A stretch of DNA of 64,000 bases from a virus. Numbering within the stretch: position 1 is the first letter of the stretch; the number at the start of each line of letters is the position of its first letter. This document shows positions 5,307-29,752 of this stretch, in pieces. The notes below the pieces were generated by a model that ran no database searches, had not been told where the DNA came from, and was given only the letters and a program-made list of their open reading frames with translations. The DNA lies in IMG/VR virus record IMGVR_UViG_3300021599_002733, one strand, 5' to 3'. Made by a program: the position numbers and the translations under genes.

Positions 5307-5409
5307 TGGTCAGGACAGGATTCGAACCTGTAACCCCTTATTTATTTGAGTGATTTCTAGAGGAGCTCTCTCACTTGGGGAGTGCGTCTACCAATTCCGC
5401 CACCTGACC
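5307..5409 (-). ncRNA. tRNA-like RNA (Leu-type D arm) with non-canonical, expanded anticodon/variable region
   Basis: Acceptor GGTCAGG/CCTGACC+A, D arm GGCGGAATTGGTAGACGC, T arm ACAGG-TTCGAAT-CCTGT; about 50 nt between D and T arms with no U33-type anticodon loop. Confidence 0.75.
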
Positions 5410-6338: not shown

Positions 6339-7958
6339 TTAAACTGCTATTCCTTTTTTATCAAGAACCCCATTCAACATAAAAACCACATCACCAAGAT
6401 ACCCATCCCTAGCCAGGTCATCCAAATCATATATTTCCTCATCCCAATATGAACCACAACAATCACATCCAAAACTTTCCAGTTTACCTAACACAACATA
6501 GTTGCCTTCAAAATTAATCCATCTGATTTTTAGTTGTAGTACTGAATCAACTGTTTCATCAGCCAATTCATCATCAAAATCAATATCTTTAATTTTTCCA
6601 AATTGTTGGAACAAATCACATGCCTCTGCAAATTCTCTAGCTGTCATAACGTTTTATCTTTTTAATTATGGTTCAATATACGAACTTTATTTATTATCAC
6701 TAAGTCCTGAAATAAAATCCAAACATTTCTGTTTTACCTTAAAACTTACCTTACACCCATCCAGGTGAAAAAAGTAACCAATCTCATTATCAAACATTAC
6801 CAAAATTCCCTTATACACAAATGTATTATTCATAACCTTTATCTTTAAATATAATTCAATATACGAACTATCTATTTAAACCACTCGTCCTCATCACCAA
6901 ACCAGTTATCATCCTCCACCCGGGTGATATCACACCTTTCATACCCCTGACCTTCATATTCCATGGAACCCACAATTCGATCCACCACCCACTTGTTCTC
7001 CACCTCAAATGTTCTTCCATCGTGGGGTCCACCTATAACCTTTACAATATATTTTACCATATCCAATTAATTAAAAGCCACTTGGTACAACACTAAAGTG
7101 GCTGCGTTCACGTCAGGTATTTCACCTAAATCTTTATTCTGAAATTTTACAATGTTGATCAGGTCTCGTCCTGTGGTTTCGCCTGTTAAAGCATGTTTCA
7201 CTGCTGATTTGTAATCTTTTTTAACTTTTGTTTTCATAACCTTTATCTTTAAATATGTCTTAATATACGAAAGTAGCTTTAATTAGCTACTTCCTTTTAT
7301 TATTATTTTATTTAAAATTCATAAATTTCATTCCAATTCCCTTTAATATAATCAACTTCACTCATATCATCTATATAATTATAACAAAAATCAAAATAAT
7401 TCTCATATTTTATTTCTTTATCTTCCTCAAACTCATTTAAAAAATCATTTAATATTTCTTCATCTTCATAACTTTCAATAATTTCTTTTACAAAATTATA
7501 ATCTCTTACTTTAAATTTAACTTTCATAACTTTTATCTTTAAATATGTCTGAGTATACGAAAAGAGCTTTAATTAAGCTCTTCCTTTTTAGTAAATGTTT
7601 CAATAATTTCAATTTCAAATACCTCATAATTATGATGTTTTAATTGAGTTGTGAATTTAGGACCTGGTATATTTCTTCTTTTACCATCTTCATTTAATAT
7701 TAATTGAGAACGGTCAATAGTTGTAATATAATTTTCTAGTCCTAGATTTTCAAATGATTTAACTTGTTTAAAACGTTTTTTCTTTAAACCTGATAGGTCC
7801 CCCACTTGAAATTCTTTAAAATACCCCATAGAGATATTATGTTTATAATGATTATTTATTTCTTTAATACCTAATTCATTTAAACCATATAATTTAACCT
7901 CAATCTCTTTTTTCACTTTTCTCATAACCTTTATCTTTAAATATGTCTCAATATACAA
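6339..7958 (-). CDS. Run of early hypothetical ORFs (6339-6647, 6687-6833, 6872-7066, 7067-7237, 7312-7527, 7569-7925)
   Basis: ORF track plus own translations; nearly each has its own cassette promoter. Confidence 0.6.
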
Positions 7959-25400: not shown

Positions 25401-27914
25401 TTACTTGTAGACTTTTTTCATGGTACCATCGCTATACACTTCAATGTATATTCCGGTTGCTGTAAATTGGGATGGATCTACTTCTTGTCCTCTCAAGTTG
25501 ATATATTTTACAATGGTTTTTTCTGAGTCTAGATTTGTATTGTTAATAGAGATAGGTCCAAATGTTTCATACACACCATTCAAGTCATATTGCTGTAGTC
25601 TGTAGTAGTTGATGATTGGCTCAACTTTGTAATCTGTTACGTTATAGTCAATTTGGTTTGTTGAGTTACCTGCTGCATTTAATGTTGTGATAGTTGTCCA
25701 AGTTTCTCCATCTCTACTTTTCTGTAAATTAAAGTGGCTTGTGTTTTGCTCTGTTGCAGTTACCCAAAATAAATGGTTGTTGTTTCCTTTATTTACTCCA
25801 TCAAATGTAGATAGTTCAACTGGAAGGCCAAATGTGATGTTTATTCTATATTCCTCTATTTCACCCCAATCATACCCTAGTGAATAATAGGCATCGTTTG
25901 ATGGTGTTTCTGCCCATGAAGATAATATTCTTAAAGTAACAGTTCCTATATTTGTTGTTGATGGTACTGTAAAAGATTGTGAACGAGTTGCCCCGGGTGA
26001 TTGCTGCATTATGGTTTCAGTTGTTTCGAATAAACCATCATTGTCAAAATCAATCCATGCAACATACCCAGAATAATTTAAATATGTCATGGGGCTAGAT
26101 GCGGAAATTGTATATGTTGTTCCTCTATTTAATGTGGTTAAAATTGAGGTGAAATTTTGGTATGAATCGTATCCTTGTGGAGCGTCATATGTTGAATTGT
26201 TATTTATTGTGTTTAAAGTTACATTTGAGATATAATCTCCACTACTTGTTCCATAAATATATTCTGGTGCTAGATTTAATGTCACACTTACTGGGGTGTT
26301 GAAACTTGCAGGGCAAGTACCGTTAACTGAACGAGTTCTAACCCAAATTGTAGATAATTGAACGTTCAAAAATAGGGAGAAGGGATTGGCTGGGTTGTTT
26401 TGGAATCCATCCACCGTTGTAAAATTATCGGATGACCATTCAATTCTGTTGATGGTTCCTTCATTTCCTGTTGTGGTAAATACAATACCATCATTCACTG
26501 TTGTTGTGGTTACGTTTGCTGATATTGTGCCTGGGTTTGTTGGGGTTGAACAAGGTGTTGTAGCACAAATAGAGAAGGTACCTTGACCAGTCCCATTACC
26601 ATAACTATGTACCCTAACATAATATGTTACTCCATTAGTTAACCCCGTTACAGTTGTTGTTTCAGTGGATGAACCTGATGTATTGTCAACACAAGCAAGT
26701 GAGGTTAACCCAGCGCAAGTCCCACTATAAACTTGTAAAACAGCATCTGATAAAGTACCAGGTGTAACTGTAAGGGTTTGGCTTGTACCATTTGCCACAA
26801 AACTATACCATACATCATCATCCGCAGTTCCAACACATGCTGCTACAGATTGATTTGCTCCTACCGTTGTACCATTTGTTGAAGAACTACAGCTACTTCC
26901 TGAGTTTATTGTCAATGCAGGGGCACTTGAGCAGTTATTGTTTGATGGAGGGGTAACACATGTTCTAGATATAGTAAATGTACCTGTAGTTGTTGAATTG
27001 TAATGGCCTATATAAACAAAATAAACAGTTCCACTTGTGGCTGTAAATGTTGCAACTTCGTTTGAGCTTGTTATATTATCTACATTTGCAACTGTTGTAT
27101 ATGTTCCCCCACAAGCACCTGTATTACTTGTTAAAACTAATAATCTAGTATCAAATCCTTGCACTACAGTAAGTGTTGTTGTACTACCATCTCCTGTAAA
27201 TTTATACCACACACCCATTGTCCCTGTGGTGGATGAATTTGGTGCTGTTTCTGATACAGCATTTACTGTTGTTCCCGCTAAAGCAGATGTAGCACAAGGT
27301 AAACTTGTAGCACCGGAGCATTCATCGTTTGAGGGTGGTGAAGCTATTGTATATGTAACTGTAATGTTATCTATTAGAGCAGGTGGGTTCACACCACTAC
27401 TACCATCATTTCTCCAACTAAAAATAATTCTTCTGGTTGTCCCAGCAATTGTGTTTGGTAAGGTATAAGTAGTTGTAGCACAAGTGGTTTGGCCTTGAAT
27501 TGTCCCTAAAAGTACTCTATTTGTTCCACTAGCTGTTACTGCAGTACCTGCTGTTGGGGTTACAGTGTTAACACATGACCATACTCTTAAATCATCAAAA
27601 CTAGACTCCCCAGCAACTTTTCTATTAAAATTTAATGTAATGTTAGTTACAGAGGCAGGCACAACAATACTAAAATAAGCATGAACTATTGATACTGCTG
27701 TGTTTGTATATGAGTAGGCACTTGAATTGTTTGAAATATAAAGTGCTCCTGTTCCATCACATTGGTTAGCTGTTCCACGGAACCATTTGTTTGTTTGAGT
27801 TCCATTCACTAAAGTAAGTGAATTTCCAGTTTCAAATGTTTCTGAAAATAGGGTGGTTTGTGTGAAAGACACAAATGAGATCAACATGAACCATATTAAT
27901 AGTAGTCTTTTCAT
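25401..27914 (-). CDS. Secreted multi-domain protein with GEVED domain and T9SS-type C-terminus
   Basis: Signal peptide; two PPxNDxCxxA beta-sandwich repeats; WIDFDNDG...GEIEEY (GEVED-like); LPVELSTF Ig module; C-terminal KYINLRGQEV...GIYIEVYSDGTMKKVYK. Confidence 0.75.
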   Translation of the reverse strand: MKRLLLIWFMLISFVSFTQTTLFSETFETGNSLTLVNGTQTNKWFRGTANQCDGTGALYISNNSSAYSYTNTAVSIVHAYFSIVVPASVTNITLNFNRKVAGESSFDDLRVWSCVNTVTPTAGTAVTASGTNRVLLGTIQGQTTCATTTYTLPNTIAGTTRRIIFSWRNDGSSGVNPPALIDNITVTYTIASPPSNDECSGATSLPCATSALAGTTVNAVSETAPNSSTTGTMGVWYKFTGDGSTTTLTVVQGFDTRLLVLTSNTGACGGTYTTVANVDNITSSNEVATFTATSGTVYFVYIGHYNSTTTGTFTISRTCVTPPSNNNCSSAPALTINSGSSCSSSTNGTTVGANQSVAACVGTADDDVWYSFVANGTSQTLTVTPGTLSDAVLQVYSGTCAGLTSLACVDNTSGSSTETTTVTGLTNGVTYYVRVHSYGNGTGQGTFSICATTPCSTPTNPGTISANVTTTTVNDGIVFTTTGNEGTINRIEWSSDNFTTVDGFQNNPANPFSLFLNVQLSTIWVRTRSVNGTCPASFNTPVSVTLNLAPEYIYGTSSGDYISNVTLNTINNNSTYDAPQGYDSYQNFTSILTTLNRGTTYTISASSPMTYLNYSGYVAWIDFDNDGLFETTETIMQQSPGATRSQSFTVPSTTNIGTVTLRILSSWAETPSNDAYYSLGYDWGEIEEYRINITFGLPVELSTFDGVNKGNNNHLFWVTATEQNTSHFNLQKSRDGETWTTITTLNAAGNSTNQIDYNVTDYKVEPIINYYRLQQYDLNGVYETFGPISINNTNLDSEKTIVKYINLRGQEVDPSQFTATGIYIEVYSDGTMKKVYK

Positions 27915-27984: not shown

Positions 27985-28014
27985 GAAAACCTCACTATCT
28001 GTGAGGTTCTTTTT
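27985..28014 (-). terminator. Intrinsic terminator after the tRNA cluster
   Basis: AACCTCAC-loop-GTGAGGTT followed by a T-run on the minus strand. Confidence 0.7.
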
Positions 28015-28015
28015 G

Positions 28016-28089
28016 TGGAGGATAACGGAGTCGAACCGTTGACCCCTTGCGTGCAAGGCAAGTGCTCTAGCCAGCTGAGCTAATCCCCC
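28016..28089 (-). tRNA. tRNA-Ala(TGC)
   Basis: Cloverleaf GGGGGAT/ATCCTCC with G3:U70; anticodon loop CTTGCAC. Confidence 0.95.
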
Positions 28090-28191: not shown

Positions 28192-28341
28192 TCAAACTTT
28201 GTTTATAGCGTAAACAGCAGCTTGTAGATGTGTGATAGCATCACTGAGATTTTTAGTTGGTGTTTCTTCATACTTCTGAGTGAGTTTCACTAGAGTAGTC
28301 TCTAGTGTTTTGATTTCAGATTGTATTTTTAACTTTTTCAT
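28192..28341 (-). CDS. 49-aa helical hypothetical protein
   Basis: Own translation MKKLKIQSEIKTLE...; AATATGTATAA motif upstream. Confidence 0.5.
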   Translation of the reverse strand: MKKLKIQSEIKTLETTLVKLTQKYEETPTKNLSDAITHLQAAVYAINKV

Positions 28342-28389: not shown

Positions 28390-28707
28390 TTATCCTTTAA
28401 GTACTTGTTTTGACGCTAATTTATCTAATCTAGAGTCAACGTAGCGTCTAGTTTCCTCTATTTGGTTCATTATGGTTTTTTCTACCATTGTGACATCTCG
28501 TCCACATTTTTCGAACTCCCTCCAAATATTTTGGTGCATTTCATCAATATGACGATGTATATCTTCTACATCACGCATGTAGTTGTTTTTAAATGTATGT
28601 AAATCTGAGTTTAACTTACTGATCTTAACCATACCCACAACAATAACAGATATAATAATTACTGCTACAATCGTAAGCATACCTAAAACGAATGATGTTA
28701 TTTCCAT
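28390..28707 (-). CDS. Membrane-anchored coiled-coil protein
   Basis: N-terminal TM helix; flanked by a 15-bp inverted repeat. Confidence 0.75.
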   Translation of the reverse strand: MEITSFVLGMLTIVAVIIISVIVVGMVKISKLNSDLHTFKNNYMRDVEDIHRHIDEMHQNIWREFEKCGRDVTMVEKTIMNQIEETRRYVDSRLDKLASKQVLKG

Positions 28708-28757
28708 GTTTTCTAGTTTTTAAAATGTCAAAGAACTCTTACATTATTTTATTTATG

Positions 28758-28829
28758 TATTCGGTACGGGGTTCGAACCCGTGCCTCCGCCGTGAAAGGG
28801 CGGCGTGTTAACCACTTCACTAACCGAAC
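28758..28829 (-). tRNA. tRNA-Glu(TTC)
   Basis: Anticodon arm CCGCC-CTTTCAC-GGCGG; T arm ACGGG-TTCGAAC-CCCGT. Confidence 0.93.
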
Positions 28830-28830
28830 A

Positions 28831-29170
28831 TAACCCCTAGCAGTTTCTATTGATCAAGTAGACCATCTAGGGGTTGGTATTGGTTATATGAGTGTCTATA
28901 GAGGCAACGCGTTTGCACCTATAAAGCACCTCAACTTCCCAACACTCAAAAAGACCATCTGAGTGGGCAGATCTAACGGTATGCCCGATGGTACTTGACC
29001 TGTAGATTCTATCTACAGGGGGGTTCAAACTCTAGAACCGGAGAACTAGAGGGTTCCAACATTTTCATGTTGGTGAGGCAAAAGACCTACCCTGGTACGC
29101 TCGATCGCGGTCACCACAGTCCAGAAGCGTGGTAGGTACTGTTTTGGTATACGTATTGTACTCGGAGATG
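28831..29170 (-). ncRNA. Putative structured non-coding RNA (about 7 consecutive hairpins), family unknown
   Basis: No credible ORF, GC-richer than flanks, many adjacent inverted repeats, abuts the 5' end of tRNA-Glu. Confidence 0.6.
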
Positions 29171-29172
29171 GT

Positions 29173-29286
29173 TTAGTATTCTTCTTTTTTCTTTGTTTTA
29201 GCTTTTGGATATCCTTTTTGTTTAGATGCCCACGAAACCCAACTTTGGAGTGTTTCGATTCTTGCTTTAGCTGATGTTTTACTCAT
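29173..29286 (-). CDS. 37-aa basic peptide
   Basis: Own translation MSKTSAKARIETLQSWVSWASKQKGYPKAKTKKKEEY; promoter at about 29310. Confidence 0.5.
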   Translation of the reverse strand: MSKTSAKARIETLQSWVSWASKQKGYPKAKTKKKEEY

Positions 29287-29338: not shown

Positions 29339-29752
29339 CTATTTTTTAAAAACTTGAATGGTATGTTCTTTTTCTATCAAGTCTGTAAATTGCCCCTCAT
29401 ATCGTGTTGCTCGAACAATATGGTTGTCTATCCAATGGTAGTTTCCACCACGTGGTTTACCCATCAATAAACCATGGTATTTGAAGCCATGTTTGGCTAA
29501 CCACTGTTCTGTTACCGCTCTATGTTCCTCTACTCGAGAGGTAAAGAAGGTGATGATATGTCCTTCATCAAACCACTTGTTTAAAATTTCAAGTGCATCT
29601 GGGTATAGTTTAGCGTCTATCATGCGTTCAGGTTCCTCGTTTGGAATGTCATCGCATATGGTTCCATCTATGTCTATCAGATAATTTTTAACGTTGTTAG
29701 AGAGGATAGGGGATATTCGTTTACCGTCTTTTTCTAAATTGTGTAATTCCAT
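29339..29752 (-). CDS. HAD-superfamily phosphatase
   Basis: LIDIDGT, FFTSR, MGKP..G..WIDN. Confidence 0.8.
   Translation of the reverse strand: MELHNLEKDGKRISPILSNNVKNYLIDIDGTICDDIPNEEPERMIDAKLYPDALEILNKWFDEGHIITFFTSRVEEHRAVTEQWLAKHGFKYHGLLMGKPRGGNYHWIDNHIVRATRYEGQFTDLIEKEHTIQVFKK

Follow-up and report, generated by a model that had tools for sequence, protein, structure and literature searches.

AbiF has reportedly been recognised only since 2025 as an RNA-neutralised toxin and as the ancestor of Cas13. It is the HEPN RNase toxin (Abi_2/AbiD/F) of a type III toxin-antitoxin, abortive-infection system, and is neutralised by a ncRNA encoded in cis, upstream of its gene, named AbiFr, or RCd22 in C. 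difficile (PMC12737573; PMC13064643; bioRxiv 10.1101/2025.04.15.648962). AbiFr and RCd22 neutralise AbiF by direct binding, with the AbiF dimer binding two RNAs, and RCd22, which is formed from two abiF motifs and a terminator, works in trans (PMC12737573; bioRxiv 10.1101/2025.04.15.648962). A structure of PbAbiF with its ncRNA (PDB 8VZ6), attributed to Zilberzwige-Tal et al. 2025, is referred to in PMC12737573, PMC13064643 and the C. difficile preprint. A phage hairpin, sk1 cos, inhibits AbiF (PMC13064643), and an orphan match to RF03085 has been listed, without interpretation, in a cyanophage paper (PMC9964418). For another type III system, phage phiTE escapes ToxIN via a pseudo-ToxI RNA, a phage look-alike of the host antitoxin RNA that is composed of 36-nt repeats, comes without a toxin and is proposed to hold the Abi toxin in its neutralised state (PMC3475682).

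A second group of relevant systems comprises structured RNAs found beside phage tRNAs. The T4 species 1 and 2 RNAs are stable RNAs encoded in a phage tRNA cluster, to which, to our knowledge, no function has been assigned. GOLLD and ROOL are phage-borne, tRNA-adjacent and of freshwater metagenome origin, traits shared by the RNA described here, and each is a single large fold of 580-800 nt.

The locus described here lies in a phage-like window (the whole stretch of DNA that was analysed, 64,000 nt, or 64 kb), in which the minus strand is the coding strand for all neighbouring genes and for three tRNAs. A preliminary description had drawn attention to an unexplained multi-hairpin RNA at 28831-29170. 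This stretch is best explained as encoding one composite minus-strand RNA of ~310 nt (28832-29142) at the head of a phage tRNA operon, and its two AGUACC...GGUCUUUU domains are homologous to the ncRNA directly upstream of Bacteroidota Abi_2/AbiF genes. The features of the locus, in the order in which they would be transcribed, are as follows.

29148..29155, minus strand: AT-rich promoter-like box TACGTATA, 5-7 nt before the first conserved base of the RNA
29077..29142, minus strand: module 1, AbiFr-like, class B; best match in the window to a bacterial-only covariance model, R1
29056..29073, minus strand: hairpin hA, CCAACA/UGUUGG; 3 of 5 pairs compensatory, absent in L083 and L145
29030..29051, minus strand: hairpin hB, CUCUAG/CUAGAG; 5 of 6 pairs compensatory
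28999..29024, minus strand: C-run and hairpin hC, CCUGUAGAU/AUCUACAGG; CCCCUG invariant, 4 of 8 stem pairs compensatory
28946..28997, minus strand: module 2, AbiFr-like, class A/C type; from pattern matches and model R1
28876..28947, minus strand: domain 3, a long hairpin with internal loop UUGGGAA / CAUAUAACC; helices 10-12 of the alignment, 8 compensatory pairs
28832..28875, minus strand: 3' hairpin AACCCCUAG/CUAGGGGUU with an inner hairpin; helix 13 of the alignment
28757..28829, minus strand: tRNA-Glu (UUC); ARAGORN, Rfam tRNA 68.7 bits
28102-28187, minus strand: tRNA-Ser; ARAGORN
28015-28089, minus strand: tRNA-Ala; ARAGORN
27986..28010, minus strand: intrinsic-terminator-like hairpin 3' of tRNA-Ala; from a consensus scan only

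The 3' end of the RNA is separated by 2 nt from tRNA-Glu on the same strand. Its position directly upstream of that tRNA, as originally noted, is therefore confirmed, and can be described more fully: the RNA forms one unit with the tRNAs of an operon, flush with their ends. The terminator-like hairpin is the probable end of this operon, the contents of which are probably the hairpin RNA, tRNA-Glu, two small ORFs, tRNA-Ser and tRNA-Ala. In this respect the window RNA resembles the T4 species 1 and 2 RNAs, being a structured non-tRNA RNA flush with tRNAs in one operon, for which maturation by the tRNA enzymes would be expected. The minimal relatives consist of a ~130-nt core exactly between two tRNAs, or of a lone ~45-nt hairpin; because the core lies flush between two tRNAs in relatives (2583-2716 in contig L265, for example), release of the RNA by tRNA-processing enzymes is plausible. 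At the other end, the TACGTATA box is a putative promoter: homologues have ATATTTATA or a similar sequence at this position, and bacterial AbiF ncRNAs begin at the same ACAGUAC, 6-7 nt past a TAnnTTTG box. A sigma-70 promoter scan upstream of the RNA, using a tool whose scope excludes Bacteroidota and phage promoters, gave nothing convincing.

The minus-strand RNA (28830-29175) has a predicted folding energy of -118.2 kcal/mol, compared with -90.2 +/- 5.5 for dinucleotide shuffles (z -5.1), and the plus strand of the stretch folds more weakly (z -3.2). All seven inverted repeats listed in the preliminary description exist where they were placed, on the minus strand, and its account of a GC-rich stretch with no credible ORF also holds, with a G+C of 0.45-0.48 against 0.26-0.35 in the flanks and overlap limited to TTG-start ORFs of 53 and 46 aa. 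The two domains that it had recognised by a shared AGTACC pattern are equally real, as the window has exactly two occurrences of AGTACC-N(20-50)-GGTCTTT, each on the minus strand (28950-28995 and 29081-29140), where 0.05 would be expected from shuffles. A reported repeat of AGATGGTCT fared differently: two copies are present, but the second is unconserved in homologues, so the repetition is probably due to chance.

Related IMG/VR loci were fetched via two neighbouring proteins and then searched for the RNA using nhmmer, which located it in 11 related loci, within tRNA clusters and on the same strand as the genes. A pattern for the second domain added 50 further viral loci, and homologues of the RNA are found in more than 40 distinct IMG/VR contigs from uncultured phages. 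A blastn search of 50,697 phage records matched the tRNA-Glu part only, so at that sensitivity no cultured phage carries the RNA. An alignment of 13 full-length homologues (A1; 70-92% identity) shows strong covariation. RNAalifold predicts 80 pairs in 13 helices, with 98.5% of cells paired and 28 pairs compensatory; sliding the partners by 1-3 columns leaves 34-46% paired and at most 5 compensatory pairs, and the observed covariation score was reached by no column shuffle.

Module 1 has an outer stem, P1 (ACCUACC/GGUAGGU), with a bulged U after AG, and an inner stem, P2 (ACGCUU/GAGCGU), followed by the 3' bulge ACCAG and the tail GUCUUUUGC; it is near-invariant in the 13 phage homologues, and an additional hairpin, which covaries, stands in place of its apical loop. 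Module 2 is built along the same lines, with P1 (ACCAUC/GAUGGU, again with a bulged U), P2 (GGGCA/UGCCC), a 12-nt loop UACCGUUAGAUC, the 3' bulge ACUCA and the tail GGUCUUUUU, and covaries by A-U to G-C and A-U to U-A exchanges. The 3' hairpin is terminator-like in most relatives, where U6 follows, and in the window tRNA-Glu begins 2 nt on. Among 401 Bacteroidota genomes, the pattern of this hairpin gave chance matches inside coding regions only, and no bacterial counterpart was found for hA-hC, domain 3 or the conserved inner part of the 3' hairpin. A role as a scaffold or in stability is possible for hA-hC and domain 3.

Multi-domain conservation, tRNA adjacency and a freshwater phage origin, all as for GOLLD, could be taken to indicate one large ornate RNA with its own function, such as a ribozyme or a GOLLD/ROOL-like assembly, of which the AbiFr-like parts would be merely two helices. 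The window RNA is, however, much shorter than GOLLD and ROOL and is modular: relatives lack module 1, or hA and hB, or have domain 3 reduced to a small stem capped by GAAUAGCCCAAGGCAUAAG (the short forms), or retain just the ~45-nt hairpin, and some carry a ~70-nt insert after hairpin hB. No long-range pairing between domains is conserved in the predicted consensus structure of A1. An Rfam search of the stretch at the gathering threshold and at E<=10 returned nothing, with RF03085, GOLLD, ROOL, tmRNA, RNase P, 6S and 5S all absent, and ARAGORN found no tmRNA. Taken together, these observations render the single ornate RNA very unlikely, and they uphold the earlier exclusion of tmRNA and RNase P RNA and the separation from GOLLD and ROOL. 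The initial proposal of a novel structured RNA was thus right in that the RNA is genuine, conserved and outside the Rfam models, and needs amending for its two signature domains, which are homologues of AbiF antitoxin RNAs. Two further resemblances were discarded. A Cas12a repeat in hairpin hC, suggested by its GUAGAU likeness, was rejected as the stem is conserved in homologues and the sequence is not, and module 1 as 5S rRNA helix IV/V was rejected with no 5S match at E<=10.

The relationship to AbiF emerged from a phage-derived pattern for module 2, AGTRCC-N5-GCWTNCCRTWAGATCWGC, scanned over one genome each of 185,579 species. This was present in 16 contigs (~0.3 expected, by our own estimate), all of them Bacteroidota MAGs, including Flavobacteriales, Crocinitomicaceae, Chitinophaga, Prevotellaceae, Sphingobacteriales and others. 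Each of the 16 matches lies ~25 nt upstream of an abiF-type ORF starting MANKTPYSIADQI, which is assigned to Abi_2 by Pfam (4.9e-57) and to AbiD by PADLOC (4e-70), and matches PDB 8VZ6 (PbAbiF, Prevotellaceae) at 3e-40; two of these ORFs (L160 and L168) diverge after ~20 residues, as if disrupted. As this first link used a pattern derived from the phages, Abi_2 genes were also sampled without reference to the RNA. Abi_2 (PF07751) is found in 26 of 301 Bacteroidota genomes, and, by our own reading of the upstream regions, RNAs of class B or C accompany 20 of 27 Abi_2 loci. Bacteroidota AbiF proteins beside such RNAs match 8VZ6 at E 3e-40 to 4e-72, the AbiF nearest to that structure (E 4e-72) being adjoined by a class C RNA. 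At all of the bacterial loci the RNA and abiF share a strand and lie less than ~100 nt apart.

The ncRNAs upstream of Bacteroidota abiF (L155-L203) form at least four classes that follow AbiF protein clades. In a maximum-likelihood tree of 33 AbiF proteins, RNA class tracks protein clade (support 100/99 for A, 99/97 for B and 96/97 for C), an agreement that is supportive of specificity and not proof of it, because relatedness among the rows inflates it. RF03085 (37-bit gathering threshold) matches only class D among the four (L182, for example, at 44.9 bits); it has no match among the class A-C bacterial RNAs, and none at E<=10 in the window RNA, on either 221 nt or 1.7 kb. Class B has the layout ACAGUAC-P1-ACGCU-loop-AGCGU(A/C)CCAGG-P1'-UCUUUUGC, a design to which module 1 conforms, with its conserved parts identical letter for letter. 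Most bacterial members keep the loop CCCGUAAGAUC, for which module 1, like the bacterial L178, has a hairpin instead.

Alignment of 18 bacterial RNAs showed P1 to covary, with 97.4% paired and 5 pairs compensatory. The covariance model R1, built from these 18 AbiF-linked RNAs only, was run over the whole window without filters (128 kb). Module 1 (29077-29142) was the best match, at 53.1 bits and E 2.8e-12, and module 2 (28946-28997) the second, at a modest 19.1 bits and E 0.012; nothing beyond the two modules fell below E 0.1 in the window. The same model gave 27 matches in related phage loci. The hairpins have the bulged-U P1, an inner stem of CGCU/AGCG or GCA/UGC, a 3' bulge and a U-rich tail, and the elements conserved across the bacteria (the bulged U, CGCU/AGCG, the CCAG bulge and GUCUUUUGC) are invariant in the phages. 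The apparent link of module 2 to bacterial class A rests on the phage-derived pattern. Elsewhere in IMG/VR, class B modules of phages (L209-L233) show P1 variants as in bacteria, such as CUUAUC/GGUAAG and CACACC/GGUGUG, and several keep a bacterial-type loop, (A/U)CCCAUAAGAAC, in place of the hairpin inserted in the window.

The window modules therefore share both hairpin architecture and conserved letters with the AbiFr-type RNAs upstream of Bacteroidota abiF. They differ from them in lacking an adjoining abiF, in being tandem modules of different classes inside a longer RNA of a tRNA operon, and, for module 1, in the extra hairpin where AbiFr has its usual loop. In overall layout the window RNA resembles RCd22, a single RNA in which a terminator-type hairpin comes after two hairpin motifs that bind AbiF; RCd22, however, adjoins its toxin gene, and RF03085 does not score the window.

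Well over 100 contigs from freshwater viruses and metagenomes carry AbiFr-like modules. A tRNA lies immediately 5' of the module or on both sides of it, or else a solitary hairpin follows the gene for the major head protein, and all of these would be positions with high expression. In L106, a lone AbiFr-like hairpin (7874-7920) directly follows a major head protein gene (phrog_11589, 2.1e-29) and precedes a small basic ORF of 61 aa (MAGNPKTPKS...); the head-gene hairpin also occurs in L113, L120, L128, L138, L141 and L148.

This variety of settings (within tRNA arrays, behind the major head gene, and ahead of terminators in places that resemble 3' UTRs), together with the usual joining of the hairpin to other conserved domains, such as GAAUAGCCCAAGGCAUAAG or the 3' hairpin, is what might be expected if the AbiFr-like hairpins did another job for the phage, serving as a site for a phage protein or in the stabilisation or processing of late and tRNA-operon transcripts. 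In that case common descent, or copying of a phage RNA by AbiF, would account for their resemblance to AbiFr, and AbiF would not be inhibited. We regard this as unlikely, given that the bacterial motif is found only at the 5' ends of abiF, among both the 16 pattern matches and the Pfam-anchored sample, and that the nucleotides conserved in bacteria are those that are invariant in phages. Phages do acquire host fragments near tRNA genes, and the locus could in principle be a functionless remnant of captured host DNA. A remnant is extremely improbable, as the RNA has been retained in well over 100 diverged contigs, both viral and metagenomic, in which compensatory substitutions occur and the key nucleotides do not vary.

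The window RNA does not lie directly upstream of a same-strand abiF. A tblastn search with seven AbiF proteins found no AbiF-like coding in the window (best E 0.15), which represents 64 kb of a larger genome. A PF07751 search gave no Abi_2 in any of ten whole contigs from related phages; CheckV puts the completeness of three of these at 96-100%, one has terminal repeats, and the complete ones measure 166, 123 and 114 kb. Likewise, no AbiF was found in 25 further viral loci with class B modules, nor among the matches listed for at least 120 metagenome loci with the short core. With no Abi_2 in the window or in the ten related contigs, the RNA appears to be an orphan copy and not a toxin-antitoxin locus. 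It would nevertheless be an ordinary cis antitoxin if a phage-borne AbiF module had its toxin gene outside the window, for instance to exclude superinfecting phages, as in the phi027 prophage of C. difficile. Phage and prophage AbiF/RCd22 modules do exist (bioRxiv 10.1101/2025.04.15.648962), and the window is only part of the phage genome. This arrangement is nonetheless highly improbable, since the bacterial RNAs all keep within ~100 nt of abiF, whereas here tRNA-Glu and small ORFs come next, and since the related contigs without Abi_2 include complete ones.

The host of this phage is probably a member of the Bacteroidota, as suggested by the exclusively Bacteroidota range of the bacterial RNAs and by an 837-aa protein encoded in the window (25401-27914, minus strand), which contains GEVED and T9SS-associated galactose-binding-like domains.

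Two core modules that copy an AbiF-silencing RNA suggest that the phage most likely makes the RNA to disarm AbiF defence. We consider it probable that the RNA is an orphan antitoxin decoy, bivalent in nature, that is expressed with and matured from the tRNA operon and keeps host AbiF inhibited during infection. The RNA may be bivalent because module 1 (class B) and module 2 (class A/C) are each like the RNAs of a different AbiF clade. As with pseudo-ToxI in phiTE, the RNA is homologous to a host type III antitoxin and is encoded without a toxin gene; the toxins differ, being ToxN in one case and the HEPN protein AbiF in the other, and the escape of phiTE was demonstrated by experiment (PMC3475682), that of the present phage being a proposal. 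Inhibition of AbiF by the sk1 cos hairpin is consistent with such a decoy mechanism (PMC13064643).

A possible sequence of events can be modelled on established type III toxin-antitoxin biology. A phage without abiF would transcribe AbiFr look-alikes at a high level together with its tRNAs. Cleavage by RNase P at the 5' end of tRNA-Glu would free the 3' end of the RNA, which the terminal 3' hairpin may shield, and in relatives 3'-end processing of the upstream tRNA would also free the RNA. The two modules would then occupy host AbiF, as a dimer with two RNAs bound, so that the HEPN site stays blocked; they may parallel the two RCd22 motifs on the AbiF dimer, or alternatively address two AbiF clades. 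As host transcription fails, the labile host antitoxin would run short, a depletion trigger borrowed from ToxIN, and the phage RNA would keep AbiF inhibited, so that the cell would not abort. For the window RNA itself, we infer expression, processing, AbiF binding and escape from AbiF.

The decoy model does not account for hA-hC, domain 3 and the 3' hairpin, which are conserved and together make up more than half of the RNA. These parts could be accommodated in a multivalent array of anti-defence RNAs matured by the tRNA machinery. In such an array each module would serve for its own AbiF clade, and additional defences under RNA control, such as a further type III toxin or Cas13 effectors derived from AbiF, would be met by domain 3 (or its GAAUAGCCCAAGGCAUAAG form) and the 3' hairpin as decoys. 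Effectors of the latter kind are common in Bacteroidota; we nevertheless consider an array of this breadth decidedly unlikely.

The principle of antitoxin-RNA mimicry is itself known, and what is new in the decoy reading is its direction at AbiF, its tandem form, and its incorporation into a tRNA operon. No report of a phage copying the AbiF antitoxin RNA to counter AbiF was found in the literature searched (of which the primary Cell paper was not part), nor a description of the Bacteroidota RNA classes A-C as a family. Should the decoy reading be true, mimicry of type III antitoxin RNAs, so far known from a single laboratory phage, phiTE, would be widespread in nature, and the tRNA arrays of phages would also be where anti-defence RNAs are expressed and matured. 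Three Bacteroidota AbiFr classes that are missing from Rfam would be defined, each tied to its own AbiF clade, and the phage RNAs would provide ready-made natural inhibitors of AbiF, and possibly of early Cas13-like nucleases. If the decoy reading fails, an abundant and well-supported new family of phage RNAs remains.

Several other features of the locus and its relatives are worth recording. A 105-aa protein without a family match, in which a coiled coil accompanies an N-terminal membrane helix, is encoded at 28390-28707 on the minus strand; many relatives keep its gene directly downstream of the RNA, preceded by a conserved GAGTTCTTTGACAT motif. Between this gene and tRNA-Ser is an ORF of 49 aa (28192-28341, minus strand) whose weak resemblance to the Acb2/Tad1 hairpin domain falls short of the cut-off (17.4 bits against 27; E 0.005); if real, this would be a second anti-defence gene in the operon of the RNA. 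The neighbouring HAD/PNKP-like gene (29339-29752) was considered as a functional partner and rejected, with an RNA match in 0 of 80 viral loci that carry the gene; a tblastn search of cultured phages with its HAD-like protein gave distant cyanophage matches only.

Further from the RNA, a 103-nt tRNA-like gene (5307-5409, minus strand; Rfam tRNA 44.7 bits) was missed by ARAGORN, and has a Leu-type D-arm and an insert of ~40 nt in place of the anticodon loop. Its 5' sequence, GTCAGGTGGCGGAAT, is also found directly 3' of the AbiFr-like core in many metagenome contigs. Two freshwater metagenome contigs (L265, 2200-6000, and L270, 5312-5529) contain arrays of more than 25 tRNA genes, which also carry the AbiFr-like core and the freshwater-1 RNA (RF02979, 74.3 bits), and the array of L270 includes a group I intron.
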